64,000 bases of DNA from Promethearchaeia archaeon (GCA_029856145.1 JAHQWK010000001.1:1-64000), one strand, 5' to 3'. Shown: positions 12,750-52,549, counted from the first letter of the stretch. Numbers and translations: made by a program. Notes: a model not told the origin generated them from the letters alone.

Positions 12750-13262
12750 TTATTGTTCTTTACTAAGACGTTTTAGCTCATATTTTTTTAATTTTGCTAG
12801 ACCTTTATTTGTGAGCTTTATTTTTCTCTTTGTACTCTTACCATCAGTATTCTGATTTTCCTCTAACCACTTTTCTTTTTTCTCAATTAAGATTGGACGA
12901 AATCTTGCGACGAATTCTTGTTTTCGTTTTTTAAAATCTTCTGTAGATTCGCCCTCTTTAAATCTATAAAACTCGTAAGTGAAACCCTTTACATTAATAA
13001 CCGTTCTTCTAGTTATTTTTATTATTGAATCAACATCATCCCATAGGGTATAATCAGAAATTATTGGATTTCCCTTGGTATAAATATCAGGATATACATG
13101 TGCTATGCCATTATTTGATATTAATATGTGTGAAACCCAATTATAAGTCTTATTTCCATAAATTATATTTCCTTTACATAAAGTACTATATACTATTTCA
13201 TCTCCCTCTGGAATAGTCGACTTAAGGTTTGAATATTCAATAGGTACTAAAAAATCTGAAAT
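12750..13262 (-). CDS. Unannotated 170-aa protein with probable ATT start ((M)SDFLVPIEYSNLKSTIPEGDEIVYSTLCKG...KYELKRLSKEQ)
   Basis: 513-nt stop-free frame with no ATG/GTG/TTG; GAGGAG SD at 13276-13271; in-frame TAA at 13280. Confidence 0.7.
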   Translation of the reverse strand: MSDFLVPIEYSNLKSTIPEGDEIVYSTLCKGNIIYGNKTYNWVSHILISNNGIAHVYPDIYTKGNPIISDYTLWDDVDSIIKITRRTVINVKGFTYEFYRFKEGESTEDFKKRKQEFVARFRPILIEKKEKWLEENQNTDGKSTKRKIKLTNKGLAKLKKYELKRLSKEQ

Positions 13263-13615
13263 GATATGATCTCCTCTTTAATTTAATTTTGTTTTTATCT
13301 TTTTTGTAAGTTAAACCATTTCTAGTAAGTAATTATCTAAAATTAGATAAGTATATAAATTTATTTTTATTGGTATGAACGTCTAGAAATTGATCCTCTT
13401 TAGTGTGAGAAAGATCTAGAAGATTAAATTTTATTATTAGATAATATATTCTTTTAGTCTTTAATCTCTCACTGGATTATAATAACTAATTATATAATTC
13501 TTAATTCAGAAAATGTATAATAAAATTGTTAAGAAATGATATATTAAATGAAATTATTATAGGAGAATCATAATTCTTTTATTTATTATTTAAAATAGTT
13601 TTAGATTGTCATAAT

Positions 13616-16591
13616 TTGATAAAAGTGCTCTCAGATAAAGAACAGTTAGAACTTAAGGATGCTCACACAGATAAAGAGTTAAAGCAAGTTTTTAAAATAA
13701 TTGCCTCAAAAAATCCGGAATCTTACTTTCCTACTAAGGAACTTAAAGGATTGGGGTATATAAGAAAAAAATGCGAATGCTGCGGCACATTTTTCTGGAC
13801 TACACTTAAAGATAGGGAGGTATGTGGAGATCCTGCATGTTCAGGAGGTTTTCAAGTTGTAGTTGATAACCCTTCTAAAATAAAATTATCTTTTATTGGT
13901 GTTTGGGAAAAAATCGTTGAGATTCTAGAACCTCGAGGTTATGTTCCAATTAAAAGATATCCCTGTGTAGCTCGATGGAACCCAACATCAGAGTTTACAA
14001 TTGCCTCTATATCAGCATTTCAGCCTTATGTAATAACTGGAGAAGTAGAACCACCAGCTAAAAAGCTTGTAATCCCTCAATTTTGTTTAAGATTTAACGA
14101 TATTGAGAACGTTGGTGTTACTGGAAGCCATTGTACTGGGTTTGTAATGATAGGTCAACATGCTTTTGTATCTCCAGAAGAATGGGATCAAGATCAACTT
14201 TTCATGGATATACATGATTTTATTCATAAAGGAGTAGGACTTCCTTTAGAAGAAATCACAATTCATGAAGATTCATGGGCAGGTGGTGGTTCTTTTGGCT
14301 GTAGTCTCGAATTTTTCAGCAGGGGTGTAGAAATGTTCAATCAAGTATATACAATGTTTGAACAGACTCTTGAAGGCCCAAAGGAACTAAAACTAAAAGT
14401 TCTTGATATGGGACTTGGTCAAGACCGTGTTGCATGGTTTTCTCAAGGTACACCTAACATTTATGAAGCGATTTTTCCATATGTTTTATCAAAATTAAGG
14501 GATATTACGAAAATCGAATTAGAATTAGAGTTATATGATCAATTTTCTCAATATTCAGCTTATTTAAATATCGATGAAGTAGATGATATGGATGAAGCTT
14601 GGCAGCGAGTTGCTAAAGAATTGAATATTAGTGTAAAGGAACTCAGAAATAAAATAATGCCTATGACTGCTCTTTACTCTATCGCTGAACACGCGCGTAG
14701 CTTATTATTTGCTATTAATGATGGAAAGTTACCTTCTAATGTTGGTGGAGGGTATAATTTGAGAGTTATTTTCAGACGTGCTATAAGTTTTATCGATAAA
14801 TTCAAGTGGGATATTGATATGGCTAATGTATGTGTCTGGCATGCTAAAGAATTAAAAGGTATATTTCCAGAAGTATCTGAACATTTGGATGAAATTAGAG
14901 AAATACTGGATGTCGAGAGAGAGAAATTTTATGCTACTAAGAAAAAAGCGGGAAAAATTTTAGAAAAAATGCTGAAAAAGGGGGAAGTTTCTACTAAAAA
15001 ACTTATAGAGTTATATGATTCTAACGGAATAAGTCCTGATATGGTAAAATCAACAGCTAAAAAATATGGGATGAAAGTAAACATTCCAGATGATTTTTAT
15101 AAATTAGTAGTTGAAAGACATGAAATAACTGAGCAAGATCATGCCACAAGAAAAGAAGTCGAATTAGATTTAGAAGTAATCCCTGAAACAAAATCTCTCT
15201 ACTATTATGACTATACCGATACTTCTAATGAAGCGAAAGTTTTGAAAATCATTGATAAAATGGTTGTTTTGGATAAAACAGTTACATATCCTACTTCTGG
15301 AGGTCAACTTCATGATGTAGGAACGATAAATGGGCAAAACTTCTCTGATGCTTTTAAACAAGGTAATTATACCGTTCATGTTATGGATGATAAACCTAAT
15401 TTTACGGAGGGAGACACCGTTAAAGTAGAAGTTGATAAAGATTGGCGTATTCAACTCTCCCAACATCACACAGCTACTCACATCGTAAACGCAGCAGCAC
15501 GAGACGTTTTAGGAAGCCATGTGAATCAAGCAGGAGCTAAAAAAACATTAAAAAACTCTCACTTAGATATAACTCATTATGAACAAATTCCAAGAGATAA
15601 ACTTCTTGAAATTGAAAAGAAAGCAAATCAAATAGTTGTTGAAGGCATAGATATTCATCTAGACTTCATACCTCGTGCTGAAGCAGAACAACAATATGGT
15701 ATGACAATATATCAAGGAGGAGCTGTGCCTGGGAAAAATTTAAGAATTGTTGAGATACCTGGGGTAGATGTAGAAGCTTGTGGGGGCACACATTTAAATA
15801 ATACTTCAGAAACAGGTTACATCCATATTACAAAATCACAAAAAATTCAAGATGGTATTGTAAGACTTACATTCACCGCTGGTAAGGCTACAAACAAGTT
15901 AAAAGAAAAACATAAAAGAATTCTTGATGAATTAAAGGTTATTTTGAATGTTGATCGTAAGCAACTCGTGGACCGTGTAAAAGAATTATTTGAAAAGTGG
16001 AAAAACATAAATAAAGCATTAAAATCTGGTAAAGTAGATGAAAATGATTTACAATTAACTTCCTCTGAAACATTTGAAGGTGACGTACTATCAGAAATTT
16101 CTCAATTTTTAAATACCAAGAAAGATGATGTTCCAAATAAAATTCAAAAGCTTAACGATGAATGGAAAGAGGGAAAACAAAAATTATCTGAAATCAAGAA
16201 TTTGTTTAGCGATAAAGCGATTGAAAAAAGGATAAAAAATGCTTGGATTTATCATAGTATTAAATTAATTTTTGAATCTATAGAAGGGTTAACTCAAAAT
16301 GATGTAAAAAATTTAAGTCAAAATATCCTAAAGAAAGATCCAAATATTATCATATTTATAACAAATCAAAGTGAAAAAGGCATAATGCTTATGGGTATGT
16401 CAGGTAGTAAATTACCATTAGAGTTAGATATTAATATTGGTAATATTGTCTCAACAGTAGTTGAACATTATAGCGGAAAGGGAGGCGGTAAATACGATTT
16501 TGGGCAAGGATTCATAACTAAAAAAGGAGTAAATTCTACAGATGTTTTGAATCATATAAAAGATAAATATTTTAAAGTCAAAAAAAAATAA
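13616..16591 (+). CDS. alaS: Alanine--tRNA ligase (archaeal type)
   Basis: N-terminal CxxC/CGDPAC Zn motif, DMGLG, PSNVGGGYNLR, editing HTATH and CGGTH, C-terminal GKGGG. Confidence 0.95.
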   Translation: MIKVLSDKEQLELKDAHTDKELKQVFKIIASKNPESYFPTKELKGLGYIRKKCECCGTFFWTTLKDREVCGDPACSGGFQVVVDNPSKIKLSFIGVWEKIVEILEPRGYVPIKRYPCVARWNPTSEFTIASISAFQPYVITGEVEPPAKKLVIPQFCLRFNDIENVGVTGSHCTGFVMIGQHAFVSPEEWDQDQLFMDIHDFIHKGVGLPLEEITIHEDSWAGGGSFGCSLEFFSRGVEMFNQVYTMFEQTLEGPKELKLKVLDMGLGQDRVAWFSQGTPNIYEAIFPYVLSKLRDITKIELELELYDQFSQYSAYLNIDEVDDMDEAWQRVAKELNISVKELRNKIMPMTALYSIAEHARSLLFAINDGKLPSNVGGGYNLRVIFRRAISFIDKFKWDIDMANVCVWHAKELKGIFPEVSEHLDEIREILDVEREKFYATKKKAGKILEKMLKKGEVSTKKLIELYDSNGISPDMVKSTAKKYGMKVNIPDDFYKLVVERHEITEQDHATRKEVELDLEVIPETKSLYYYDYTDTSNEAKVLKIIDKMVVLDKTVTYPTSGGQLHDVGTINGQNFSDAFKQGNYTVHVMDDKPNFTEGDTVKVEVDKDWRIQLSQHHTATHIVNAAARDVLGSHVNQAGAKKTLKNSHLDITHYEQIPRDKLLEIEKKANQIVVEGIDIHLDFIPRAEAEQQYGMTIYQGGAVPGKNLRIVEIPGVDVEACGGTHLNNTSETGYIHITKSQKIQDGIVRLTFTAGKATNKLKEKHKRILDELKVILNVDRKQLVDRVKELFEKWKNINKALKSGKVDENDLQLTSSETFEGDVLSEISQFLNTKKDDVPNKIQKLNDEWKEGKQKLSEIKNLFSDKAIEKRIKNAWIYHSIKLIFESIEGLTQNDVKNLSQNILKKDPNIIIFITNQSEKGIMLMGMSGSKLPLELDINIGNIVSTVVEHYSGKGGGKYDFGQGFITKKGVNSTDVLNHIKDKYFKVKKK

Positions 16592-16852
16592 ATAACAATC
16601 CTTTTTTGAACAATTCATTTTTTCTATATAGACTATATAGACTTTATATAATATGACGAGAATGCTTAAAACACTAAATTTTTTAATAATAATTAAGGAA
16701 GTAAAGAAAAACTATATATTAAAAATGTTTAATCAGATGTCATGGACCTTATTGGGTCAAAAGGAAGATTATATTAAATTAAAAAAAGAGGTATAGTGCA
16801 AATACCTCTCGAGAAATCAATTAAAATTACAAATTTGGAGGAGAAGAAAATT

Positions 16853-17035
16853 ATGAAGACTGTATATAAAGAGTTTTGTTGCACACAATGTGGAAAATTA
16901 CGCTATATTAACGTTAATGGTATCTGTTTTGATTGTAGTAATGAAAACACTTTAGTATCATTAGCAAAACAGCGTAAATTACAGTCAAAACTCAATATTT
17001 CAATGGAATCTCTCAGTCTAGAGAGTTATAACTAA
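16853..17035 (+). CDS. Small Zn-finger protein (MKTVYKEFCCTQCG...CFDC)
   Basis: CxxC pairs; GGAGGAG SD before ATG 16853. Confidence 0.65.
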   Translation: MKTVYKEFCCTQCGKLRYINVNGICFDCSNENTLVSLAKQRKLQSKLNISMESLSLESYN

Positions 17036-17197
17036 ATCTTTTTTTGAATTGTATTTTATTTAAAATTTTAAAGATTGTACTTTTTCTTTATGCTTTTTTT
17101 ATCAAAAACATTTTAAATTTAACACTTATTATTAAATTTATATTTAATAGAAAATCTCTTCTAATTTATAAGTATAATTTGAGAGGGTGCTTAATAA

Positions 17198-18019
17198 TTG
17201 GTTGAATTAATACATATCAGTGACCTCCATTACGGAAGTGAATTCCGAGAGGACCTTATTGAAAATATTATTAGTTATATTGATAAGACTCGCCCCGATG
17301 CAGTAATTTGTACAGGAGATATTGTACATAAAGGAAGGGTTGTTCAATTTAAGAAGTTTCAACCTTATCTTGATCGAATAAGAGAAATCTCTAACTTTAT
17401 AGCAGTACCAGGGAACCATGACGTGAAAAACTCAGGTATAATATTCTTTGAGAAAATTATTGGCCCTAGACGCTCACGATTACTTCTTGAGGATAAGGAT
17501 ACTATTATTGTTGGAGTATGTTCCGCTAGAGATGATATGGCAGAAGGAAGGATTGGGGATGAGCAATTGGATTGGTTAGGTCGCCAATTTAATAAGAATT
17601 TAGAAAATAGAATAATGGCATTACATCACCATCTAATCCCTATTCCAATGTCAGGACAAAAATTCACAACAGTTCGGGATGCTGGAGAAATTTTAGAATT
17701 CACCCAATTATTTGAAATAGATTTAGTTTTAATGGGGCATCGTCACGTTCCTCATGCTTATACAATTTCTTGGAAGAATTCATCAAGTACAACTTTTCTT
17801 TATAGTGGTACTTCGACTTCAAACAAAGTACGTGCTGATGATTCACCCAGTTTTAATCGTATTTATCTTGATGAGGGCGATTTAGAGGTTTATATAGTCA
17901 ATTCAACAAATCTTGAGGAGACATTATTATTGGAACGTAAAGAACATCATACAGAATTTATTAGGCCAAGGAAAACAAGAATTGAACATCTGCTTGCATC
18001 ATCAGTATGGGATGAATAA
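17198..18019 (+). CDS. Calcineurin-like metallophosphoesterase (Icc/CpdA-like)
   Basis: SDLH, TGD, PGNHD, LHHH, GHRH motifs. Confidence 0.9.
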   Translation: MVELIHISDLHYGSEFREDLIENIISYIDKTRPDAVICTGDIVHKGRVVQFKKFQPYLDRIREISNFIAVPGNHDVKNSGIIFFEKIIGPRRSRLLLEDKDTIIVGVCSARDDMAEGRIGDEQLDWLGRQFNKNLENRIMALHHHLIPIPMSGQKFTTVRDAGEILEFTQLFEIDLVLMGHRHVPHAYTISWKNSSSTTFLYSGTSTSNKVRADDSPSFNRIYLDEGDLEVYIVNSTNLEETLLLERKEHHTEFIRPRKTRIEHLLASSVWDE

Positions 18020-18023
18020 GACT

Positions 18024-18452
18024 ATGCCTAAACCTATAACTCCACTTCTTACTGTTGATGCGGTCATTCTGGTAAATAATGAAAAAGATTTAGTTCTAAT
18101 TCAAAGAAAGAATCCTCCTTTCCAAGGAGAGTTAGCATTACCAGGGGGGTTTGTTGATATAGGAGAAACTGTAGAAGAAGCGTGTACTAGGGAAGCATAT
18201 GAAGAAACTAATATTAATGTGAAAATTCTAAAACTTATAGGAGTCTTCTCTGATCCAAACAGAGACCCTAGAGGACATAATATCAGTGTGGCATTTCTTT
18301 GCGAACCAAAAACAAAAAATGAAAGACCAAAAGCAAAAGATGACGCTGCTGCGTTAGAAATGGTACCTTTAATAAAAATTTCTTCTTTAAAATTAGCTTT
18401 CGATCACATGAAAATTATTAAAAGTTCAGGGATTTTAAATTACTCAGATTAA
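18024..18452 (+). CDS. NUDIX hydrolase
   Basis: PGGFVDIGETVEEACTREAYEETN Nudix box, RDPR; start moved to ATG 18024. Confidence 0.9.
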   Translation: MPKPITPLLTVDAVILVNNEKDLVLIQRKNPPFQGELALPGGFVDIGETVEEACTREAYEETNINVKILKLIGVFSDPNRDPRGHNISVAFLCEPKTKNERPKAKDDAAALEMVPLIKISSLKLAFDHMKIIKSSGILNYSD

Positions 18453-18457
18453 TCCTC

Positions 18458-18880
18458 TTATCTTTTTTCTATAATTTCATAGAGATTTTGAAAGGAATCT
18501 TTAATAAAAAGATAGTATCCATCACCATCTTTCCTTGGAACTTTCACCACATCAAAACCCATTGAGGATGCTTTATCAACAAATTCATCACGATTTTCTA
18601 TTACTAAACAGGAATGAGTAAAAACATCTTTAGCTTTACTCTTGTCATTAGTTATAAATACTTCGAAATTCGAATCTCTATTTCCATATCTAACAAATTT
18701 GTGTTCTCTTTTTACACCAAAGAATTTTTCCATCAAATCAGGGGGAACAGATTTCGATCGGATTTTTTTAAGCCCTAGCAATTCAATAAAAAATTCATCA
18801 GATTCTTCTTCTGAATTGTATCCTACTGCTATATGTTCAATTCTCATTTTTTTCACCTTTTTCCAAAGAAATTTATACAT
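18458..18880 (-). CDS. VOC/glyoxalase-family protein (likely start MRIEH at ~18847)
   Basis: IEHIAV...FFIELLG...HSCLVI...FIKDSFQNLYEI. Confidence 0.75.
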   Translation of the reverse strand: MYKFLWKKVKKMRIEHIAVGYNSEEESDEFFIELLGLKKIRSKSVPPDLMEKFFGVKREHKFVRYGNRDSNFEVFITNDKSKAKDVFTHSCLVIENRDEFVDKASSMGFDVVKVPRKDGDGYYLFIKDSFQNLYEIIEKR

Positions 18881-18954
18881 AAAAATCTAGAATAATTTTA
18901 TTTAATCTCTCATAAATATATATATCATTTTGTAAATTCAAATAAAAAAAATTA

Positions 18955-19410
18955 GTGGGCAATAATATGAAAATTAATGAAACAGTACGAATAATAGCTG
19001 GATCTTTATGTATTTTAGTAGCAATAATACGTATCTTATTCATCTTTTTCGATTTAGGTGGAGCAATGATTTATTCATTTCTCCTTCTTGATCCAAATCA
19101 GGTAGTAAATATTTTTGAAGCTCTAATAATAATTATTTTCGCACTTTTTATGTCGATCATTGCTACTATATTTTCCGTAATAGTGTACACTGTCTTAGGA
19201 ATACTTCAAATTGCATTGAGAAAACAAAAAACACCGAGTATTATATGTACAGTTTTTAGCTCCATAAGCATTGTATTAAGTATTAGAGCTACAATTCTTT
19301 TAGCTAGTATAAATGAGTTTGACATATTTATTACAATTTTAATGATTATGTATATCGTGATTCTATCTCTCTGTATCGTTTCATACATAAAATTTAGAAA
19401 ACAAGATTAA
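18955..19410 (+). CDS. Hypothetical 4-TM membrane protein
   Basis: Hydrophobic segments. Confidence 0.6.
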   Translation: MGNNMKINETVRIIAGSLCILVAIIRILFIFFDLGGAMIYSFLLLDPNQVVNIFEALIIIIFALFMSIIATIFSVIVYTVLGILQIALRKQKTPSIICTVFSSISIVLSIRATILLASINEFDIFITILMIMYIVILSLCIVSYIKFRKQD

Positions 19411-19603
19411 AAGAATAAAGCCTTCTTGAGTAAATTATCAAGGAGCTATTAATTACTTTTTTTTTATAAATTTAATTAAATAGAATCTGTACTATTGCTA
19501 TGTTATCGCATCTGATTTTTTGTTTAAAATTTAAAAATTGTTAGGTTATAATATTATTAATAGTCAAAAAAAAAAAAATAGAATAAGGTTAGGTATTTAG
19601 TGG

Positions 19604-20473
19604 ATGACTGAAGTATCTGAAACAGAATTTCTAAATAAAATTTTAGAGGTTGTATATAAGCTCTCAAACATAGTAAAAACCCAATCTCCTCGTTTTAAGA
19701 AAAAATGGGATAATTATTTAAAACCTCTAAATGAAAAACCTCATATAATCCGCCAAATACCACTTGAAAAAAAAAAGTTTTTAGATGATATTAATTACAG
19801 AATTAAAGTCTTAAAAAACGTTGAACAAGCAACTCTTGATGGTTTTTATTCAGTAAAAACATTACTACAAACCTTTTATGGTTCATATTTTGATTCTGAA
19901 TTATTTAAAAAAGATTTCTCTGAAGATGATCAATTAATCCTAAAATATTTTGTTGCAAAAGAGATTTTAGGTAATCTAATACAATATAATAAATTAGATC
20001 ATGAATCTGTTCCTTTGAAATACAATGTAATTGCCAGAAATTACACATTGATCAAATTAAAAGGCCAAATGAATATTGAAATTCTAGATAGTTTGAAGAA
20101 ATTAAATATAAAAGATGTAAAATTGGCTGATGTAAATAATATTATGAAAGAAATTGAATCAGATGGAATTATTAAAATCGAAAAAAAGGGTAAAAGATTT
20201 CATTATAAATTGAAAAAAGAACTAGAGATAAGTAAAGAGGGAAAAAAATACTATAGTCAAGTACTCCAGCCACTCGTTGATTTTCCCACTTTATTCTTTC
20301 GTAGCTTCTTCAATATCAGAGAATTAAATGTTACTCTTGATAAAGATTTTAAGTTTCGTGATTTCTTGCTTAAAGTATTGGCTAAATCAGCCACTCAAGG
20401 TTTCTCTCCAACTAATTACGTCTTTAAAAATTTAATCAAATATTATGAAAAGATTCAGGAAGAGTCTAAATAA
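19604..20473 (+). CDS. Hypothetical protein with possible C-terminal winged helix
   Basis: Long clean ORF; VNNIMKEIESDGIIKIEK wing-like segment. Confidence 0.6.
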   Translation: MTEVSETEFLNKILEVVYKLSNIVKTQSPRFKKKWDNYLKPLNEKPHIIRQIPLEKKKFLDDINYRIKVLKNVEQATLDGFYSVKTLLQTFYGSYFDSELFKKDFSEDDQLILKYFVAKEILGNLIQYNKLDHESVPLKYNVIARNYTLIKLKGQMNIEILDSLKKLNIKDVKLADVNNIMKEIESDGIIKIEKKGKRFHYKLKKELEISKEGKKYYSQVLQPLVDFPTLFFRSFFNIRELNVTLDKDFKFRDFLLKVLAKSATQGFSPTNYVFKNLIKYYEKIQEESK

Positions 20474-20503
20474 CCCCAATTAGAATTAGTAGATTCACTA
20501 ATA

Positions 20504-21379
20504 TTAGAACTCTTTCGTTTTCTTTATTGGAATATTTAGTTCTTCTAAAAGAGGGATTAAATGTTTTTTATCTTCAGAATTCGTTCCTTTCCAATCAATT
20601 ATAAAGTAATCAACTTTTTCAGAAGTGTTATCAATCATTTTCTTAATTAACTCGTTATTCAATCCTTGAATATAATACTTTGGGCATATAAACGACATGG
20701 CAATATTTTTGTTCCTAATTAATCTATGAAAATTTGGTGCGTAATGTGTTCCACCAAAACCTAATCCTATTATTTGACTACATTCTTTTTTAAGTTGAAT
20801 AAATTTATAAATTGTGTTAATAATTGCGTTTGTTAATAACTCACCGGCGTCATTAATTTGCCATTCCTCCTTGCTACTCCCTAATTCTATGAATATTAAA
20901 GGTTTATCTAATTTTGTGGGACCATGATGAGTTACTTCAATATCAAGTGAAAATTGTGTTAATAATGGAGAAAATTTTTGCTCTATCAATGAGATAAATC
21001 CTGCTTTATGAAGTAATGCACTTGTTTTTGATAATTCCAGAGGATCTCCGCCAAAATCTGCATTTTCACTCCAATTTCCAGTTGTATGAACTAAAAACGC
21101 TGGTCGAGCAGTTTTTGATGTATGTCGGCTTGCAAAAATAAGACTATCGGGCTTCAATTCTGATTCATCTAACTTTAAATCATTCAAAAAAATGAGATGT
21201 TCTCTTGTTAAACCAAGAAATATTTCATTTTCAGTTAGATTGCTTTTGAGTTTGAAAACTGGATGATTATGCCAGCTGAAATCAACTTTTTCAAATTCAA
21301 AAAATTGAGAGTTTAAAAATTTATCACGAATATTCATTGAAGCCTTATCTTCTGTTGAGGTGATTATTAAGAATTGAAT
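20504..21379 (-). CDS. dtdA: D-aminoacyl-tRNA deacylase (archaeal DTD2), extended to ATT start at 21379
   Basis: IFASRH, VHTTGN, EVTHHGPT, FIELGS, GFGGTHYAP; conserved N-terminal strand IITSTEDKASMNI lies upstream of the ATG. Confidence 0.9.
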   Translation of the reverse strand: MQFLIITSTEDKASMNIRDKFLNSQFFEFEKVDFSWHNHPVFKLKSNLTENEIFLGLTREHLIFLNDLKLDESELKPDSLIFASRHTSKTARPAFLVHTTGNWSENADFGGDPLELSKTSALLHKAGFISLIEQKFSPLLTQFSLDIEVTHHGPTKLDKPLIFIELGSSKEEWQINDAGELLTNAIINTIYKFIQLKKECSQIIGLGFGGTHYAPNFHRLIRNKNIAMSFICPKYYIQGLNNELIKKMIDNTSEKVDYFIIDWKGTNSEDKKHLIPLLEELNIPIKKTKEF

Positions 21380-21497
21380 AACTTTTCACCAAAGAATTAT
21401 AATTTTACGAACTTATTAATCAAAATCAACATAGAATTTTATATTTTATAGTCAATATCTTAAAACTTTAATAATTTCAAAAACAATAACATTAGTA

Positions 21498-36133: not shown

Positions 36134-37123
36134 TTATAGTAATAATTCAAATAAATCTATAGCTTTTGGGTGAATTTTGCATTGTTTACTAAATCGACGA
36201 AGAATCCACCAACAAGAAGGACAATATGTTGTAACATAATCAAGATCTTCTCGATTAAAATCAGACATTCTCTTATGTGCAATTTGTTCTATTACGTCGG
36301 TTCGCCCCATCCATCCAGAACCACCACCACAACACCAATGAGGAACATTTACAACATCATATCCAATCTTTTTAAGGATATTATCAATAATCTCATCCAC
36401 TCCTTCTTTACCTCTATTCTTTAATTGACATAAATGTTGTACTCCTACTCTACCTGATTTACGTCCATTTGAAGGTTTCAAGTAATCAGAAATATATTTT
36501 ACTTCAGCATTTAGACCCTCCATTTCATTTTTAAAAAGATAATAACAAGCAGGGCACAAACAAATTATTTCTTTAAATTTTCTTGTATTAAAAATCTCTC
36601 TATTCTCCTTTACACATATTTCATATTCATTTCTTAATCCACTGATTTTAAGGTGCCATCCACAACAGATTTCCGTATCCAAAATAGTGAAATCAATCTC
36701 TTGCTGTATTAGATATTGAAGAGCATGTTGCGTGTACTGAGGAATTCTTATCGTAGAAAGACAACCCATAAAAAAAAGAGTATCTGATTCGCTTGAAATT
36801 CCTTTATATCTTTTTATTCGCATTTTATTAGTAGGATAGGGCGATCTATATTTTTCAAAATATTCACGCATTTCATTAATTCCTTCGAATGAATTTCCAT
36901 CTTCAATATATTTTTGTTTTAATGAAATTCGTTCACTTTCAGTCTCACATTCTCCACAATGAACACAATTATAGAGTTTATAATAATCATCTGAGCTAAA
37001 TTTAAAAGTGTCTTTTTTACTAAGAAGATCCTTTACTGATTCATCATTGATGAAATTTTTTGAATCAACCTCATCAGTGGGGTAATTCTTTCTTCCTACT
37101 ATTCGTTCTTTTATTGTAATCAC
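36134..37123 (-). CDS. Fe-S oxidoreductase, CCG-domain (HdrD/GlpC-like)
   Basis: CVHCGEC, FFMGC, EICCG, CPAC, WCCGGG, YCPSC. Confidence 0.85.
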   Translation of the reverse strand: MITIKERIVGRKNYPTDEVDSKNFINDESVKDLLSKKDTFKFSSDDYYKLYNCVHCGECETESERISLKQKYIEDGNSFEGINEMREYFEKYRSPYPTNKMRIKRYKGISSESDTLFFMGCLSTIRIPQYTQHALQYLIQQEIDFTILDTEICCGWHLKISGLRNEYEICVKENREIFNTRKFKEIICLCPACYYLFKNEMEGLNAEVKYISDYLKPSNGRKSGRVGVQHLCQLKNRGKEGVDEIIDNILKKIGYDVVNVPHWCCGGGSGWMGRTDVIEQIAHKRMSDFNREDLDYVTTYCPSCWWILRRFSKQCKIHPKAIDLFELLL

Positions 37124-43934: not shown

Positions 43935-43940
43935 AATTTT

Positions 43941-44048
43941 CTAACCAACCCTTTTTCCACATACATGGCAGATTGTTTGTTCCGCTGGGAGTTCAGCACC
44001 ACAATGCCTACAATTGAGTAGTAGTATACCGCAATTTTCACAATACAT
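43941..44048 (-). CDS. 35-aa Zn-ribbon microprotein MYCENCGILLLNCRHCGAELPAEQTICHVCGKRVG
   Basis: Three CxxC motifs; near-copy of the C-terminus of the downstream gene. Confidence 0.6.
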   Translation of the reverse strand: MYCENCGILLLNCRHCGAELPAEQTICHVCGKRVG

Positions 44049-44227
44049 AATTTACTCGAAGTCGTTAAATTTACACCCATTTGAAATATTTGTAAAACAA
44101 ACCTCTATGCAAGATCAAATAATTATGGTTTTATAAATATTACAATTGTGTCAGAATTTGTAAAATTTAGATAAGTGGAGAGTGTACTAAATTGATTTTA
44201 GAAAGTTAAAATGTTTAATATTATAAC

Positions 44228-44827: not shown

Positions 44828-44914
44828 AATAATGCATTTAACTTGCTTTTATTAATAATTAATCATTATTGTATAAAATAAAAGTTTTAAAATCTAAAAT
44901 CCTAATATTAAAAG

Positions 44915-45568
44915 ATGGATGCAACTAGACCGAGCTTAGCTAGAATTAAGATTAAGTTTCCGGATCAGATATGGATTTCTGAAATTTTTAAGAACTATCA
45001 TGATATAAAAATGGAAATTTCCTATTTTCTGCCTTATGATCTTGAGAAGTCCATCGGAAATAGTCTAATTGAGATTTTACATTACGATATCGATTCTATT
45101 ATAGAAGAAATTAGGAATCATCCTTCTGTTTTCGAGTTAAGTGTATTAGAGAAGAAACAAAACAAAGTTAAATTTAACGTGAAAACAAAAGATCCTTATT
45201 TATTATATGCGATAATAAAATGTGGAGTCCTTATTGACTTCCCAGTAAGAGTTGAGGATGGATTTGCATATTGGAGGTTGATATCGAGTAGAGAACGAAT
45301 AGATGAATTATTAACACTTTTTGAAGAAAAAAACATTAATTTTGAGTTATTAAGAATTGGATTATCTCCATACACTATTGAAGAGGATAAAAGTAAATTA
45401 ACATTTGATGAATCAAGTATACTTGATAAGGCTATCTCTTTAGGTTTTTTTGAAATTCCAAGAAAAATTTCTTTAGAAGAATTAGCTAACGAAATAGGCA
45501 AATCTAAATCAGCATTATCCGTAATGCTTAGAAAAATAATTAAAAAGAAAGTCTTATTCGAAAAATAA
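44915..45568 (+). CDS. Bat/HTH-10-type transcriptional regulator
   Basis: AISLGFFEIPRKISLEELA...SKSALS..LRK. Confidence 0.85.
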   Translation: MDATRPSLARIKIKFPDQIWISEIFKNYHDIKMEISYFLPYDLEKSIGNSLIEILHYDIDSIIEEIRNHPSVFELSVLEKKQNKVKFNVKTKDPYLLYAIIKCGVLIDFPVRVEDGFAYWRLISSRERIDELLTLFEEKNINFELLRIGLSPYTIEEDKSKLTFDESSILDKAISLGFFEIPRKISLEELANEIGKSKSALSVMLRKIIKKKVLFEK

Positions 45569-45591
45569 TAAATAAAAAATATAAAAAAAAT

Positions 45592-46377
45592 TTATACCCA
45601 TTCTTCTTTTAAAATATTTCCTTGTATGCCCACGACAACATATTTTATTGGAACTTTTCGGTTTGCTCTTTTAGCTCCTTCTTGAGCTAAAGCTAATAAA
45701 CCAGAACAACAAGGGACTTCCATAATAGCAACTGTAAGTGTATTTATTTTTGCTTCATCAATTAAAGATTTAATTTTTTCTATGTAAACTTCTTTACCTT
45801 GGTCGAGTTTCGGACAAGCAATTGCTATGGATTTCTGTTTTAGGAAGTCTCTATGAAAATCTCCGTATGAAAATCCCACACAATCTGCCGAAAGGAGTAC
45901 ATCTGCTCCTTGGTAATAGGGTGCTCTAGGATTGATTAAATGCATTTGAACAGGCCATTGTCGTAGAGCTGAAGGTATCTTTCCAGTTACTTCTGTTTGC
46001 GTTTCCGTCTCCTCAAAAACCATTGTTTGAGCAGAAGGACAACCACATTGGTGGGTGTGCTCAGTAAGAATTTCTTTTATTTGTTCCGTTTCAGTTTGTT
46101 CATTATGTTTCATAGATTCTAAATGTTTCTCAACAGCTTCTTCATCGAACTCTAAAGCTTCTCTTTCGATTATTTCAAGCGCGCCCTCAGGACAACCAGA
46201 AATGCACGCACCAAGACCATCGCAGAATACTTCATTTATAACCCTAGCTTTTCCATCGATTACTTTTAAAGCTCCCTCTGCACAATCTACCACACAATTT
46301 CCGCATCCTGTACAAAGATCTTCATCAATCTTGATGATTTTTCTTTTTACTGCTTCATATTGTTTTGTTTCAGTCAT
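45592..46377 (-). CDS. 4Fe-4S dicluster protein of the type found beside hcp/cooS
   Basis: CTGCGNCVVDC, CDGLGACISGCP, QWPVQ, ACPKLD, MEVPCC. Confidence 0.88.
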   Translation of the reverse strand: MTETKQYEAVKRKIIKIDEDLCTGCGNCVVDCAEGALKVIDGKARVINEVFCDGLGACISGCPEGALEIIEREALEFDEEAVEKHLESMKHNEQTETEQIKEILTEHTHQCGCPSAQTMVFEETETQTEVTGKIPSALRQWPVQMHLINPRAPYYQGADVLLSADCVGFSYGDFHRDFLKQKSIAIACPKLDQGKEVYIEKIKSLIDEAKINTLTVAIMEVPCCSGLLALAQEGAKRANRKVPIKYVVVGIQGNILKEEWV

Positions 46378-46416
46378 GATTAAATCAAATGGAAGTGATT
46401 ATATATTTTTAATTTC

Positions 46417-46426
46417 GAACATGTTC
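46417..46426. promoter_or_regulatory. Palindrome GAACATGTTC upstream of the Fe-S gene
   Basis: The AACATGTTCA sequence recurs at 48514 upstream of cooS. Confidence 0.5.
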
Positions 46427-46537
46427 AAATAGAAACGTGAGATAGGCTCACGAAAAGTATTCTGCAAAATGAAAAATATATTCTACTAAACAGCTTAAAA
46501 CCAATGAATATAAGAAAATAAATTTTTTTTTTATTAA

Positions 46538-48442
46538 TTAAATACCTAATTTTTCCCTATTCTTCTCAATATGGGCTAGCATTGCATCGACGGCTTGAAT
46601 TGGATCAGTTTCAACATGCAATATTCCACCTGTTAAATCTTTACAATCTTCGGTTAAGAGTTTAACTAAATCGGTACCTCCAGTGACTGTAGGTACTGGA
46701 TTGACATATGTATATAGACCAAATGCTAAAGCGAATATAGCATCAATCGTGGCTTTCTGCTCCATATATTCTGGAGCTGCTGCTACTACTGGTAAATCTG
46801 AAATTGGTACGCCACCAAGTGCAGCAGAGATAGCTCCTATCAAATCGGCAACTCTACCTGTATCTGTGCATGTTCCATAACTAAGAACTGGAGGAATACC
46901 TAATTTTTCACAAACAGCTTTAAGTCCAGGTCCAGCCATATCCTTTGCTTCTGGTACACATAATCCTCCAACTTGTAAAGCACCGTTACCGCACCCCATT
47001 GATAATACCAAAACATCTCTTTTAATTAATTCTTTAGCCACTTGAATTGTATGCACATCTTGTCCATAATCTCTAAGTGTAGTACAAGATATTAATCCGG
47101 CAATTCCTCGAATAGTGCCATTTTTAATTACATCTAGTAATGGATCAAGTGTCCCTCCAAGAGCAGCAAGAATACTTTCACTCGAAAATCCAACTACAGC
47201 TTCATTCATGTCTAAACCCATAATAGGTTCCACACTTGCTTTACGTTCCTTGAAATTATCAATTGCCATTTGAATTAATGTCGCTGCTTGCGCTTCAGCT
47301 TTTTCAGGTTTATAATCCACTCGTTCAGTTATGCCCTCAAAAACCACGACTTCTGAAACCGGAATTAACTTGAATTTATATTTTTCAGCATATATAGGGT
47401 CAATTGGCATACAACAATTCATATCACAGATAAAGGCATCAATGCAGCCACTTGCCAAAATTGCTTCTTGCATAATCCAATTTCCTGTAAATCCATAAAA
47501 AACATCATCCATTTCCCATCTTTGTATCATTTCTTGTCCAGTCTCAATATTTGCTAGAATTCTTAATCCTTTTGCCCCAACTGCCTTCGCCTTTTCTTGC
47601 CATTCAGATTTTCGTGCAAGCTGGACCATTGCAAATCCTAGAAATGGTTCATGCCCATTTGGAAGTATGTTTACATAATCTGGGTCTAATACTCCTAGAT
47701 TAACTCTCATTTTATGTGGTCTGGGAATATTAAATAAAATATCCTGAGTGAATTCATTAACAATTTGGCTTTGATAAGCCATCGCAATCCCAAGCCTCAT
47801 TGCTTTAAGAGCTAAACTTGCATAATATCCATCAACATTTGTAAGGCAAGAGCTTGTTGAGAACATCATTTCACCATAAATTCCGCCTGGGAATATTCCT
47901 AATTTTTTCCATACTTCTTGTCTTTCGGGTGGTGCTAATTTCTCAACAATTTTACTTTGTTCATCATAAGGTATATTAAAATCTTCCTTTGCAAAATTAT
48001 ATAATCTAAGTGCAATATCTTTTTCTGAACCATACGTATCTAAACCAAGACGCCCAACAAAACTTTTTAGTTTCTCGGGTTCAGAAATTTTAAAAGGAGT
48101 TAGACCTTCTACCGTTGCCTTTAAGGTTTTTAAAGTTGTTTCAGTATGATAATGATAAGTAGATGCCCCCATTACATTTCTAAGAAGCATCATTCGCATT
48201 GCCATTCCATCCGCGGTAATTCCACATACACCACGTTTATCTATTGATGAGTCAGCTCTACATGGACCATTAGAACATAAATCACAACGAGCCCCTTTTA
48301 AACAAAATGGACATCGTTTATCAGGATCTCCTCCAAAACCTTGTGCTTCAAATCGATCCCAGATATTATTCATACCATCTTTTTTAATTCTCTCATAAAC
48401 TTTTTGAACAGATTTATGATAAGAAATTCTTTCGTTTTCCAT
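46538..48442 (-). CDS. cooS: CO dehydrogenase catalytic-subunit homolog, divergent (CooS-V/clade D-like)
   Basis: B-cluster CDLCSNGPC...VCG; GHEP, IETG (Cys to Glu), DMNC, SCTT, MGCG, GTCTD, EQKA. Confidence 0.9.
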   Translation of the reverse strand: MENERISYHKSVQKVYERIKKDGMNNIWDRFEAQGFGGDPDKRCPFCLKGARCDLCSNGPCRADSSIDKRGVCGITADGMAMRMMLLRNVMGASTYHYHTETTLKTLKATVEGLTPFKISEPEKLKSFVGRLGLDTYGSEKDIALRLYNFAKEDFNIPYDEQSKIVEKLAPPERQEVWKKLGIFPGGIYGEMMFSTSSCLTNVDGYYASLALKAMRLGIAMAYQSQIVNEFTQDILFNIPRPHKMRVNLGVLDPDYVNILPNGHEPFLGFAMVQLARKSEWQEKAKAVGAKGLRILANIETGQEMIQRWEMDDVFYGFTGNWIMQEAILASGCIDAFICDMNCCMPIDPIYAEKYKFKLIPVSEVVVFEGITERVDYKPEKAEAQAATLIQMAIDNFKERKASVEPIMGLDMNEAVVGFSSESILAALGGTLDPLLDVIKNGTIRGIAGLISCTTLRDYGQDVHTIQVAKELIKRDVLVLSMGCGNGALQVGGLCVPEAKDMAGPGLKAVCEKLGIPPVLSYGTCTDTGRVADLIGAISAALGGVPISDLPVVAAAPEYMEQKATIDAIFALAFGLYTYVNPVPTVTGGTDLVKLLTEDCKDLTGGILHVETDPIQAVDAMLAHIEKNREKLGI

Positions 48443-48513
48443 AAATTACCACTTTTTACATATTTTTTAAAATTGATTTCTTTAAAATATAATATCATTT
48501 AAGTTTAAATTTA

Positions 48514-48523
48514 AACATGTTCA
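48514..48523. promoter_or_regulatory. AACATGTTCA motif in the cooS / oxidoreductase divergent promoter
   Basis: Matches the site at 46418. Confidence 0.5.
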
Positions 48524-48593
48524 TAAGGGTATTACTTTAAGATTACAATATATAATAAAAACTTTAAAATAAGATGCAAAAACTAATAATTCT

Positions 48594-49946
48594 ATGAAAG
48601 TTGTAATAATAGGGAATAATGTTTCTGGGACTTTTACTGCCCAAAACATAAGAGCTCTCAAGGATGATATAGAAATTGATATATTTACGCAAGAAAGTTA
48701 TCCTTACTATACTAGAGTCAATTTACCAGAATTAATATCAGAAAAAGTTACAATTGATGACTTAGTCGTTTTTAAAGAAGATTGGTATAAAAATAGGCAA
48801 TTAAACTTACACTTAAATAAAAAAGTAAATAAGATCGATTCTAATGCAAAAATAATACAAATTGAGGGTGATAGTATGCCTATTGATTATGATAAACTTA
48901 TTTTAGCACTTGGAAGCGTACCCAATATTCCTCCTATTAAGAACGCGGTTGAAATGAAAGATCAAAAGAAAGGAGTATTCACATTACGAAGTATTGATGA
49001 TGCTTTAGAAATACGAGATTATCTCAAAAAGTCCGCAATTGAAAAAGCTATTATTATTGGTGGAGGTTTACTAGGCTTAGAATTAGCTAATCAAATTAAA
49101 GATTGTAATTTGAATACAACAGTAGTAGAATTCTTTCCTCGATTATTACCAAGACAACTAGATGAAGAATGTGGTGCTATGTTAAAAGAAGAAATTGAAA
49201 ACAGAGGAATCAAAGTAGTTTTAGATGCAGCTACTGAAGAAATATTAGGAAATGGTAGAGTTACAGGAATTAAATTAAAAGGTGGAGAGCAATATGATAC
49301 AGATGTGGTTTTAATCCAAGCAGGTATTAGCCCAACAATAAGATTAGCTAAAGAAGCAAATATCCAAACAAATAGGGGAATTATTGTTAATGATTTTTTA
49401 GAAACCAGTGAAAAAGATATCTACGCTGTTGGTGATTGTATAGAATATAAAAATCAAATTTGGGGTATTATCCCTGCTTGCATGGAACAATCAAAAATAG
49501 TTGCTGCCTCTGTACTTGGGTTAAAAAAAGTAGATTATAAAGGAACAACTCCAAAAAACACGCTTAAAATAGTTGGATTAGAATTAACTTCAATAGGAAT
49601 TATAGATCCTACAAAAGAAGAAGGCGGTGGTTGGGAAATCTTGAAAAAAGCTGATAAAAAAGATTGCTGTTATCAGAAATTAGTGTTAAAAGGGAGTAGA
49701 CTAAAAGGCGCCATTTTATTCGGTGAAAATAAAGCAATTTCTTATGTTTATAATAAAATGGAAGAAGATGTAGATAGGGAAGATTTAAGAAAATTGTTAG
49801 AATTGTATATTTATGTATGTAATAATTGCGGAAAGGAATATGATGAGGCTAAAATGGGCATTCTTTTTAAAGATTTGCCAGAAGATTTCAAATGTCCGGG
49901 ATGTAATGGACCTAAAGAAAAATTTAAGAAAAAAGATAATTCTTAA
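48594..49946 (+). CDS. NAD(P)H:rubredoxin oxidoreductase-like flavoprotein with fused C-terminal rubredoxin
   Basis: GGGLLGLE, YAVGDC; YVCNNCG.EYD...LPEDFKCPGC. Confidence 0.88.
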   Translation: MKVVIIGNNVSGTFTAQNIRALKDDIEIDIFTQESYPYYTRVNLPELISEKVTIDDLVVFKEDWYKNRQLNLHLNKKVNKIDSNAKIIQIEGDSMPIDYDKLILALGSVPNIPPIKNAVEMKDQKKGVFTLRSIDDALEIRDYLKKSAIEKAIIIGGGLLGLELANQIKDCNLNTTVVEFFPRLLPRQLDEECGAMLKEEIENRGIKVVLDAATEEILGNGRVTGIKLKGGEQYDTDVVLIQAGISPTIRLAKEANIQTNRGIIVNDFLETSEKDIYAVGDCIEYKNQIWGIIPACMEQSKIVAASVLGLKKVDYKGTTPKNTLKIVGLELTSIGIIDPTKEEGGGWEILKKADKKDCCYQKLVLKGSRLKGAILFGENKAISYVYNKMEEDVDREDLRKLLELYIYVCNNCGKEYDEAKMGILFKDLPEDFKCPGCNGPKEKFKKKDNS

Positions 49947-49972
49947 ATATATTAATAGAGAGGTGATAAACA

Positions 49973-50122
49973 ATTTCTATATATCGATGTAAGAGATGTA
50001 ATTATCTTTATATTAACGATGAAAAGGATAAACCTTTCGAGGAATTAGATGAAGGAGAATTTAGATGTCCTAAGTGTCGATCTTCAAAAAAATTTTTTGT
50101 GAGGAAAGAATCCCCTTCCTAA
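49973..50122 (+). CDS. Rubredoxin-like protein, ATT start ((M)SIYRCKRCNYLY...FRCPKC)
   Basis: GAGGTGA SD; in-frame TAA at 49967; two CxxC motifs. Confidence 0.75.
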   Translation: MSIYRCKRCNYLYINDEKDKPFEELDEGEFRCPKCRSSKKFFVRKESPS

Positions 50123-50260
50123 TTTTTTTCATTATTATTTAAAGCTTATAAATATTTGAAATGGATTATCTTTATAAAATATTAAATTAATATTTTTAAT
50201 ATATTTTCAATTTAAATCCATAAGAGTCTTCAATTTAATCAATAATAAAGGTGAAAGAAT

Positions 50261-50398
50261 ATGGCAGTTTGGGAATGCACCGCGTGTGGTTATCTCTATG
50301 ATGAGGAAAAAGAAGGAACTAAATGGGAAGACCTCCCTGATGATTGGACATGTCCAGTCTGTGGTGTCGGCAAAGACATGTTCGAAAAAATAAGTTAA
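50261..50398 (+). CDS. Rubredoxin ([45 protein letters not shown])
   Basis: Canonical rubredoxin motif; GGTGA SD. Confidence 0.95.
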
Positions 50399-50576
50399 TC
50401 AAATCAATACTCTTCTTCAATTTTTTTTTATTAATTTTATTCAATTTCAAGTAATTTAGTTGTAACTTAAAATACTGTAATATTCTGCAAAAATTTTTTA
50501 AATATTTCAATTTTTAAATATAAGAGTAAAAAGTAAAAATAAAATCTAAAAACAACAGACCTAATGAATATTTAAT

Positions 50577-50957
50577 ATGAATGAAATAAAAAAGATTATT
50601 GACGAATTGGGAATTGCTGCACTAGAAGCTAACACAAAAATTGCTGGACTCGCAGTTGTGTCTGATTCGGGAAAGTTAGTTTTCCAGACAGACAATTGGG
50701 ATCTAACCAATCACACGAACATGATACTGGATGTCATTAAAGGAGACCGCACTTTTGTTTTGAATGATGGAGAATTTTCGGTTGTTGAAACTAAAACTGA
50801 AGGAATTATTGGAACCAGTCATAGCGGGATGGGACATATAATATTCGCTCTATTTCAAGGAGGTGTGCTTGTATCATATGCCATGCCTCAAGCAGATCCA
50901 CCCAAAGTATTAACTTTTCTCAAAAATTTTGCGATGAGATTGAATGGGAAGGTATAA
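50577..50957 (+). CDS. Asgard profilin
   Basis: GLAVVSDSGKLVFQTDNWD...IIGTS..GMGHII...LVSY pattern typical of Loki profilins. Confidence 0.8.
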   Translation: MNEIKKIIDELGIAALEANTKIAGLAVVSDSGKLVFQTDNWDLTNHTNMILDVIKGDRTFVLNDGEFSVVETKTEGIIGTSHSGMGHIIFALFQGGVLVSYAMPQADPPKVLTFLKNFAMRLNGKV

Positions 50958-51343
50958 TTGAAAATTATGCTTGTTCAATCACCTTCATACTTTCTTCTTT
51001 TGTAACTGTTGATTTTTTCAACACTCTTTTAGCAAGATAAATTTAACAAGTTATCATCTCTTTTAAGGGGTGGCCCTATAAAGAATATTAAGTATTAATG
51101 CAACATAGTTTCGCTCTCTTGGATTGTGAGGACTAAATCATTTGCAAGATGGTGAACAATTTGTAGGTAAAGATATGTTTGAAATAATTGAATGACTAAC
51201 AATTCAATATACTTTTTTAATTTTTTATTTATTGCTTAATTTTCTGCAAAATTTTATAATATATAGAATATAAGTTTTTAACTTGATTCAAATTAATATT
51301 ACAAAATAACCATTAAATCCTATTAAATTAAGGTGAAATTAAA

Positions 51344-52549
51344 ATTACACATTTAGAATTAATGAAAGATGTCTATTATGTTGGTTATATAGATTGGGAA
51401 GTAAGGAATTTTCATGGATATTCTACTAATCGAGGTAGTAGTTATAATGCATATATAGTTAAAGGAGAGAAAAATGTACTGATTGACACTATTAAACGTC
51501 CTTATTTTGATTACTTTTTGGAAAACATTAAAGAAGTGTGCGATCCTTCTGAAATTGATTATTTCATTACAAACCATGTTGAGTTGGATCACTCTGGGTC
51601 ATTTCCATTAATTCTTAAGTATCTTCCCAATACTGAATTACTTGCTTCAAAGAGTGGGGTTGATATTTTAAAAGCCCACTTTCATGGGGAAGTTGATGAA
51701 GATTCATTTAATAAAATTAGAGCTGTCGAGGAAGGGGATACTTTAGACATTGGAAATGGTAAAAAGTTTACATTTGTTCCCATTCCGATGATTCACTGGC
51801 CTGATTCCATGGTGTCTTTTATGACTGATGAAAATGGGAAAAATATACTTTTTTCTAATGATGCTTTTGGACAACATTATGCAACATCCAAACGTTGGGA
51901 TGATGAAAATGATCTTGCTGAAATTTTTCAGGAAGCAGAAAAATATTATGCGAACATTTTACTTCATCTTTCTGGGCTAATAGCAAAGGCAATACCAAAG
52001 GTTGGAGCATTACCAATCGAAGTTATATGTACCTCTCATGGGATTTGTTGGAGAAAGCATATCCCTGAAATTTTAGAAAGATATACCAAATGGAGTAAAG
52101 GGGAAATTGATGAAAAAAGTGTACTCATCGTATACGACACAATGTGGGAAAGCACGGCAAAAATCGCCAAAGCCTTAACTAAGGAAATTAAACATCGAGG
52201 AATTCCGGTAAAAAGGTATAATTTAACTCATGCTGATTATTCAGACGTAATCACAGAAGCTATGAAATCAAAAGCTATCATAGTTGGGAGCCCTACCCTA
52301 AATAATGGATTATATCCTACAGTTGCAGAATATCTTTCATATCAAAAAGGACTGAAACCTATGAATAAGGTTGGATTAGCTTTTGGTTCATACGGTTGGG
52401 GCGGAGGTGCTGTAAAAGAAATTGTGGAATTAATGAAGGCGGCAAAGATTGATGTTATGGAAGAAACCATAGAGATTAAATTTGTACCAAAGCCAGAAGA
52501 TTTAGATTTCAAAGAAATTGTTGATAAATTAATTAAGAAAATGGACTAA
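51344..52549 (+). CDS. fprA: Flavodiiron protein FprA (ATT start at 51344 proposed; first ATG 51362)
   Basis: SYNAY, NHVELDHSG, HWPD, FSNDAFG, flavodoxin YDTMWEST and FGSYGW. Confidence 0.93.
   Translation: MTHLELMKDVYYVGYIDWEVRNFHGYSTNRGSSYNAYIVKGEKNVLIDTIKRPYFDYFLENIKEVCDPSEIDYFITNHVELDHSGSFPLILKYLPNTELLASKSGVDILKAHFHGEVDEDSFNKIRAVEEGDTLDIGNGKKFTFVPIPMIHWPDSMVSFMTDENGKNILFSNDAFGQHYATSKRWDDENDLAEIFQEAEKYYANILLHLSGLIAKAIPKVGALPIEVICTSHGICWRKHIPEILERYTKWSKGEIDEKSVLIVYDTMWESTAKIAKALTKEIKHRGIPVKRYNLTHADYSDVITEAMKSKAIIVGSPTLNNGLYPTVAEYLSYQKGLKPMNKVGLAFGSYGWGGGAVKEIVELMKAAKIDVMEETIEIKFVPKPEDLDFKEIVDKLIKKMD

Follow-up and report, generated by a model that had tools for sequence, protein, structure and literature searches.

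Genes of the window with putative near-cognate start codons

We analysed a stretch of 64,000 nucleotides (hereafter the window; contig C9:1-64000 of the genome, labelled G000, of an uncultured Promethearchaeia archaeon) in which five genes appear to begin at ATT or ATA behind a Shine-Dalgarno (SD) sequence, rather than at one of the canonical start codons ATG, GTG and TTG. A preliminary description of the window had pointed out four of these genes, all with ATT, and had reported GGTGA or GAGGAG 6-8 nucleotides upstream and an in-frame stop codon just before the start; all four sites read in the sequence as it claimed. The fifth gene, at 37114, would start at ATA and is a near-cognate case that the description did not contain. 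We consider it highly probable that these five genes and a genome-wide set described below start at near-cognate codons, namely AUU and AUA and, less often, AUC and ACG. The genes and their ribosome-binding sites are as follows.

13271..13276, minus strand: ribosome-binding site of gene 1, GAGGAG, 8 nucleotides before ATT; matches the consensus AGGAGGTGAT
12750..13262, minus strand: gene 1, 170 codons from ATT; no ATG, GTG or TTG anywhere in frame
21386..21390, minus strand: ribosome-binding site of dtdA, GGTGA, 6 nucleotides before ATT; its TGA is in frame
20504..21379, minus strand: dtdA, archaeal D-aminoacyl-tRNA deacylase, 291 codons from the ATT at 21379; Pfam PF04414
37120..37125, minus strand: ribosome-binding site of the fifth gene, AGGTGA, 5 nucleotides before ATA
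36134..37114, minus strand: fifth gene, CCG-domain (HdrB/GlpC-like) protein, 326 codons from the ATA at 37114; Pfam PF02754
49960..49966, plus strand: ribosome-binding site of the rubredoxin-like gene, GAGGTGA, 6 nucleotides before ATT
49973..50122, plus strand: rubredoxin-like zinc-ribbon protein, 49 codons, two CxxC motifs, ATT start; weak Rubredoxin match
51332..51336, plus strand: ribosome-binding site of fprA, GGTGA, 7 nucleotides before ATT
51344..52549, plus strand: fprA, flavodiiron protein, 401 codons from the ATT at 51344; Pfam ODP and Flavodoxin

Gene 1 would start at the ATT at 13262-13260(-), and an in-frame TAA lies five codons upstream (13280-13278). Reading of the frame bore out the statement that its 170 codons include no canonical start codon. 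An ATC at 13265 is a second start candidate; we prefer the ATT because homologs place ATG on that codon, and in four same-genus homologs the protein accordingly begins M-S-D or M-T-D where the G000 protein would begin I-S-D. The protein has no match to a Pfam family. The expectation that gene callers miss or shorten such genes also held for this gene. In particular, with the common start codons no minus-strand open reading frame (ORF) of at least 40 residues is listed at gene 1, whereas the full start set of NCBI table 11 calls it; public calls for members of the family use internal starts that shorten the protein to 156, 115 and 97 residues, and within the range of 93-298 residues that was searched the public records contain no call for the copy in the window.

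In the remaining genes the position of the putative start can be compared with that of known domains. In DtdA, residue 4 aligns with the N-terminal region of 2gfq and 1yqe, homologs of known structure; a canonical codon first occurs in dtdA at codon 15, within the conserved DKASMNI motif. The Rubredoxin match of the rubredoxin-like protein covers residues 4-42, below the Pfam cut-off, and an in-frame TAA (49967-49969) stands just ahead of the ATT at 49973. For fprA, in which an in-frame TAA (51329-51331) lies five codons upstream of the ATT, residue 8 of the protein aligns with residue 8 of Moorella FprA (1ycf), in agreement with the earlier proposal that the ATT gives this protein its usual N-terminus. 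The next canonical codon of the gene at 37114 is 81 codons downstream of the ATA.

Similar observations apply to genes outside the window. The Pfam match of L21e begins at residue 3, which corresponds to profile position 3, and its first canonical codon is codon 52; a polyferredoxin reaches a canonical codon for the first time at position 141 of 146; in reverse rubrerythrin this codon is number 93, downstream of the rubredoxin-like domain; and in IleRS it is number 23, within the catalytic domain.

Start codons behind strong ribosome-binding sites in the genome

The G000 assembly comprises 3.55 Mb in 32 contigs, has a guanine-plus-cytosine (GC) content of 30%, and is rated 97% complete with 5% estimated contamination. 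Because the 16S rRNA's 3' end, where the anti-SD sequence lies, is unassembled (positions 4-695 of the gene alone are present, at a contig end; L001, G000:C20:147429-148119), we derived the ribosome-binding consensus, AGGAGGTGAT, de novo from the ATG genes of G000. (Note that both the 16S rRNA gene, with its first ~700 positions, and the gene for initiation factor aIF1 are incomplete or missing despite the high completeness rating.) We then located all 5-mers of the consensus genome-wide and tabulated the codon at every spacing, counted in nucleotides after the A of GGTGA, in frames that ran open for 100 codons or more and had a stop no more than 12 codons upstream.

ATG, TTG and GTG peak at spacings of 4-8. 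At spacings of 3-8 behind strong sites there are 220 ATG, 57 TTG and 24 GTG codons, and the frequent use of TTG noted in the preliminary description is evident in these counts. When sites with a canonical start are removed, 22 ATT and 19 ATA codons stand at spacing 6, over a baseline of 3-4; ACG occurs ten times at spacings of 3-7 and just once elsewhere, at spacing 0. The codons AAT, TAT, TTT, TTA and AAA show no spacing peak in the same census. Taking ATT, ATA and ATC together (ATH), 69 of 145 in-frame codons at spacings of 5-6 are ATH, compared with 71 of 550 at downstream in-frame control positions (Fisher p 7e-18). Behind decoy motifs with scrambled sequence the corresponding count is 28 of 169 (p 3e-9) and there is no peak. 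The ATH peak at spacings of 5-6 therefore falls inside the peak of ATG. Such an SD-anchored census had been proposed in the preliminary description, and it yields the excess of ATH at the spacing used by ATG that a use of these codons as starts would predict.

To define individual candidates we applied strict rules to ORFs of at least 100 codons: a spacing of 4-7, no upstream in-frame canonical codon, and a distance of 10 codons or more to the first canonical codon downstream. Fifty-nine ORFs qualified (25 ATT, 21 ATA, 7 ATC and 6 ACG), compared with 273 canonical starts under equal criteria; 32 of the 59 have no canonical codon nearer than 30 codons. Among the 59 are L21e, IleRS, the polyferredoxin and reverse rubrerythrin named above, in which Pfam domains start ahead of every canonical codon. 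Near-cognate starts would thus make up at least ~2% of genes and ~18% of the genes with a strong ribosome-binding site. Very probably, then, all four genes flagged earlier, the fifth gene, and at least about 60 genes genome-wide begin at ATT, ATA, ATC or ACG behind a ribosome-binding site.

These data bear on the alternative that translation begins at the first downstream ATG, GTG or TTG, with no ribosome-binding site, and that the open stretch upstream and its SD-like motif arose by chance. Strong ribosome-binding sites are found in a minority of G000 genes (about 273 of ~2,700 long ORFs), and fprA does have an ATG, without a ribosome-binding site, six codons downstream. However, gene 1 offers no canonical codon at all, a downstream start would cut conserved domains of L21e, the polyferredoxin, reverse rubrerythrin, IleRS, DtdA and aIF1, and the ATH peak coincides with the spacing of ATG and is missing behind decoys. 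In addition, one of the three fprA orthologs that carry ATG at the position of the ATT lacks the downstream ATG, and thus has ATG at the upstream position only. We regard a general use of downstream starts as very improbable.

Several further features of the near-cognate set were considered. A sharp preference for spacing 6 within the strict set turned out to be partly an artefact of the filter: the in-frame TGA of GGTGA satisfies the rule for an upstream stop at spacing 6, and the in-frame GTG removes cases at spacing 5. For this reason we rely on the unfiltered peak at spacings of 5-6 alone. Stronger ribosome-binding sites ahead of ATH were not seen, the mean matched run being 5.5 nucleotides compared with ~5.7 nucleotides for ATG. 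We also entertained the idea that coupling of termination to reinitiation relaxes the choice of start, and rejected it because near-cognate genes are seldom internal to operons: a same-strand ORF ends within -12 to +30 nucleotides of the start in 7 of 59 near-cognate genes (12%) but in 107 of 232 canonical SD-led genes (46%; p 5e-7). In this AT-rich genome, a profile of TATA promoter positions upstream of near-cognate genes showed no positional signal, and neither did the other classes of gene.

Conservation of the start position among relatives

A search with the G000 copy of uS12 matched exclusively records from Promethearchaeota (Asgard archaea of the Lokiarchaeia type), and the numerous small GTPases encoded in G000 are consistent with a placement in the Lokiarchaeia. 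We compared the putative starts with those of orthologs, a comparison that the preliminary description had suggested, and found that ATG, ATT, ATC and ATA interchange at the same codon while the ribosome-binding site is retained. Among 16 dtdA sequences of the genus (the window's included) the start codon is ATC in 8, ATT in 5, ATA in 2 and ATG in 1, behind GGTGA in 14 and AGGTG in the other two. The 15 genus sequences of fprA, again with that of the window, have ATT (12) or ATG (3); GGTGA is kept upstream in 14 of 15 and is AGTGA in one, and the peptide THLEL is conserved across the genus with synonymous changes. In the close group of the rubredoxin-like gene (L158-L165; eight sequences including the window's), ATT is found in 6, ATC in 1 and GTT in 1 at this spacing, and GGTGA or GGTGG is retained in all 8; more distant orthologs have ATG at or adjoining this position.

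(The GTT is that of L163, the rubredoxin-like ortholog at G016:C14, where relatives have ATT at equal spacing. GTT is also found in the G000 ortholog of a gene at 384940(-) of a 400 kb sample of G005, a second species of the genus. At a start position GTT could either be an additional start codon, one that mismatches at two positions, or show that the start has moved.)

The gene at 37114 has ATG exactly at the G000 ATA codon in 16 of 23 genus orthologs (MKERIKGRK, compared with IKERIVGRK in G000). For uS12, the codon aligned to the ATA of G000 is ATG in 21, ATA in 15, ATC in 5 and ATT in 2 of 81 sequences (80 public Lokiarchaeia records and G000), and many other copies begin a few codons off, with GTG or TTG.

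These two genes raise the possibility that some genes in fact start at the GTG inside GGTGA or AGGTG, so that the motif would be a start codon and not a ribosome-binding site. At spacing 5 this GTG is in frame, as in uS12 (GTG TTA AAT ATA), some of whose ATA cases are ambiguous on this account, and in the gene at 37114 (GTG ATT ACA ATA), where it lies three codons upstream of the ATA. Such a start is not available to the four genes reported earlier, nor at spacing 6 in general, where the in-frame triplet is TGA; the 59 strict cases exclude any upstream in-frame canonical codon. Moreover, two close orthologs of the gene at 37114 (74-76% identity over the first 80 residues) share the GTG ATT ACA context and yet have ATG three codons after the GTG, and several uS12 orthologs have ATA or ATC and no in-frame GTG. 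That the GTG is the start is, on this evidence, improbable, and would concern particular genes.

The comparisons also speak to the idea that the sites are errors of sequencing or assembly, or belong to decaying pseudogenes. Although the assembly is in 32 contigs and some contamination is estimated, 15-25 genomes that were assembled independently carry the same codons and ribosome-binding sites, closed chromosomes included (one of the same-genus genomes is the closed chromosome CP070831.1), and the reading frames are unbroken and conserved, their differences being synonymous. We regard the chance of such an origin as negligible.

Beyond single genes, we compared seven ortholog pairs between G005 and G000: five have ATH in both genomes and retain the ribosome-binding site, and another pairs ATG with ACG. 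At spacing 6, the 400 kb sample of G005 has ATH at 9 of 11 codons. In G026, which belongs to another family of the order, a sample of 400 kb yields only three or four qualifying genes and the excess is weaker. These results, read from sequence, support the view that a relaxed choice of start codons characterises the lineage and is fixed in the genus (Lokiarchaeia, Promethearchaeota), and that it is not peculiar to four genes. The earlier proposal of relaxed start selection in this lineage is upheld in this respect by the orthologs, the census and the second species; its restriction to ATT was too narrow, as ATA is about as frequent and ATC and ACG are also used.

In G000 itself, three paralogs whose products start ISIDW or ISLEW (G000:C3:68920(-), C3:69807(-) and C19:125390(+)) each have ATT behind GGTGA; because all three use ATT, the near-cognate start appears to have been kept through gene duplication.

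aIF1, the initiator tRNA and a possible mechanism

The preliminary description had recommended a look at aIF1 and the initiator tRNA. We found aIF1 in 17 of 18 same-genus genomes, of which 16 are readable, and in all 16 the start falls on ATT without exception, preceded by a conserved AAGGTTGTGATAA. The sole canonical codon is number 89 in 5 of the 16 genomes. Read from the ATT, residue 5 of the protein aligns with residue 3 of M. jannaschii aIF1. In G000 there is no Pfam SUI1 match and no tblastn match with the proteins of 25 relatives, and the neighbourhood of the gene could not be placed; aIF1 is probably missing from the assembly, and we do not claim that the organism lacks it. (In the aIF1 gene of G026, L190 on G026:C1, CTA is found where G019, of the same genus as G026, has TTG; an ATA lies three codons upstream of it.)

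The initiator tRNA of two same-genus genomes, G004 and G002, is canonical, with A1:U72, three G:C pairs in the anticodon stem (GGG:CCC) and the anticodon CAU, which argues that an altered anticodon is not the cause of the relaxed start choice. It has an intron of ~30 nucleotides adjoining position 37/38 (about L226:1485-1595, G004:C78; L223, G002:C30). Pattern searches of G000 (A1:U72 acceptor, GGG/CCC stem, CAU loop) found no initiator tRNA, and BLAST with the G026 initiator tRNA found it in G004 and G002 and not in G000. ARAGORN detected 19 tRNAs in G000 and Rfam 25 (with relaxed settings ARAGORN returned over 2,000 hits, which were noise); that ARAGORN finds only 19 suggests that standard finders overlook most of the intron-rich tRNA genes in this genome. 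Note that G000 has a tRNA-Ile(UAU) with the loop CTTATAA and at least one large intron (L220:1364-1537; G000:C8:10419-10592, +), and therefore AUA in elongation would be read by a UAU tRNA and not just by an agmatidine-modified CAU tRNA.

The sequences themselves show where the putative starts lie, that these positions are conserved, and that ATG and ATH interchange among orthologs; the decoding tRNA, the inserted amino acid, the efficiency of initiation and any control through aIF1 we infer, as follows. The strong SD sequence, of consensus AGGAGGTGAT, would pair with the 3' end of the 16S rRNA and so put the codon that lies 5-6 nucleotides (range 4-7) after the A of GGUGA into the P site. Ordinary Met-tRNAi, with the anticodon CAU, would then read the near-cognate codon despite one mismatch, and the proofreading factor aIF1 would let the complex pass, such that the protein begins with Met.

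Several points weigh against near-cognate initiation as set out here. Every start is predicted from sequence alone; at spacing 5 the in-frame GTG of GGTGA could be the start instead (uS12 and the gene at 37114); the ATG six codons into fprA could also be used; and aIF1, the initiator tRNA and the 16S 3' end were not found in the G000 assembly, for which reason the mechanistic parts of the proposal rest on same-genus genomes.

If the near-cognate starts are real, they may still have no regulatory meaning. AT-biased mutation in a genome of 30% GC could erode ATG to ATA and ATT, and the change would merely be tolerated where a strong ribosome-binding site keeps output adequate. The GC content of 28-33%, the far greater number of ATT and ATA than of ATC and ACG, the drift of the third base between T, C and A among orthologs, the ATA of G000 at 37114 as a lone change from ATG, and the excess of TTG over GTG all fit this explanation. 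Against it, ATC, which runs contrary to AT bias, is the commonest start of dtdA (8 of 16), aIF1 keeps its ATT in each of 16 species, and near-cognate genes differ from canonical ones in how often they lie directly behind another gene (12% for ATH versus 46%). We put the chance that tolerance is the whole explanation at only slightly below even.

The preliminary description had raised a possible regulatory role for such starts, and the ATT of aIF1 gives this suggestion a definite candidate. It is also possible, although we hold it rather unlikely, that low start stringency across this Asgard lineage is tuned through aIF1, whose own mRNA would start at AUU. Such a feedback loop is plausible by analogy, because aIF1 starts at ATT and rejects non-AUG codons, and because eIF1 and the bacterial infC gene regulate themselves through weak starts. 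Were this the case, a drop in aIF1 would raise its own translation along with that of a regulon of roughly 60-200 genes with AUH or ACG starts, among them genes for ribosomal proteins, tRNA synthetases, small GTPases and oxygen defence.

Other features of the window

A second small rubredoxin-like ORF, with weak similarity to the first (50264-50389(+); a 47-residue open frame, E value 0.001), sits between the ATT-started rubredoxin-like gene and fprA. The arrangement looks like a small oxygen-defence cluster, because relatives share the tandem rubredoxin-like layout. At 16796-17035(+) there is an ORF of 77-79 codons with GAGGT upstream; an ATA at 16802 is at good spacing, a GTG two codons before it is too near the motif, and the start would be either one.

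Comparison with known systems

SD-led initiation at AUU or AUA is known from E. coli infC, which encodes IF3, and pcnB (PMC5499595, PMC4705826). The genes described here resemble these two in that a near-cognate AUU or AUA stands behind an SD site and, as predicted here, would be read by the normal initiator tRNA. As in infC and pcnB, the start is one position off AUG, the SD sequence lies at the spacing of AUG genes, and the conserved protein begins at the near-cognate codon with no usable in-frame canonical start; uS12 and the gene at 37114, which have an in-frame GTG in the ribosome-binding site, leave the last point ambiguous. In bacteria a handful of genes is concerned, whereas here there are at least 59, or ~18% of strongly SD-led starts, and the host, unlike those of infC and pcnB, is an archaeon with eukaryotic-type factors (aIF1 and aIF2).

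Animal mitochondria routinely use AUA, AUU and AUC starts in an AT-rich genome, with no SD mechanism and with a single modified tRNA-Met. In contrast, this genus has a separate canonical initiator tRNA.

Among archaea, ribosome profiling of Haloferax volcanii placed ~30% of putative alternative start sites at near-cognate codons (PMC7261190). Those sites were extra or alternative starts and were set aside as possible false positives (PMC7261190), whereas here near-cognate codons are the sole plausible starts of conserved genes, those for ribosomal proteins included. A review of archaeal initiation mentions no start codons other than AUG, GUG and UUG (PMC7531240), and we found no report in the literature of ATT or ATA starts in Asgard archaea. 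The start list of NCBI table 11 holds ATT, ATC, ATA and CTG beside ATG, GTG and TTG; ACG is not on it. Gene finders limited to ATG, GTG and TTG would drop or shorten a few percent of Lokiarchaeia proteins, including ribosomal proteins, IleRS, aIF1, small GTPases and redox enzymes, and this loss would distort protein families, N-terminal signals and gene-content counts in genomes that are used to reconstruct the origin of eukaryotes.

A further parallel concerns the initiation factor itself. aIF1 destabilises complexes on non-AUG mRNA (PMC6237735), and its homolog eIF1 likewise discriminates against poor or non-AUG starts; in eukaryotes eIF1 autoregulates through the poor context of its own start, which results in negative feedback (PMC6237735, PMC3326321), and bacterial infC regulates itself through its AUU start (PMC5499595). 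In the same-genus genomes aIF1 resembles infC, as the gene of a factor that rejects near-cognate codons would itself start at AUU, and the weak start on which autoregulation of an initiation factor depends is present in all 16 of them. The eukaryotic eIF1 start is an AUG in poor context, whereas that of aIF1 would be a non-AUG codon behind an SD-like element, as judged from its sequence. An archaeon that has initiation factors of the eukaryotic type and routinely accepts AUU, AUA, AUC and ACG behind an SD sequence, as this one probably does, would offer a natural system in which to study how the stringency of aIF1 and eIF1 is set. Feedback of the infC and eIF1 type, to which the ATT at the start of aIF1 points, is a directly testable hypothesis.

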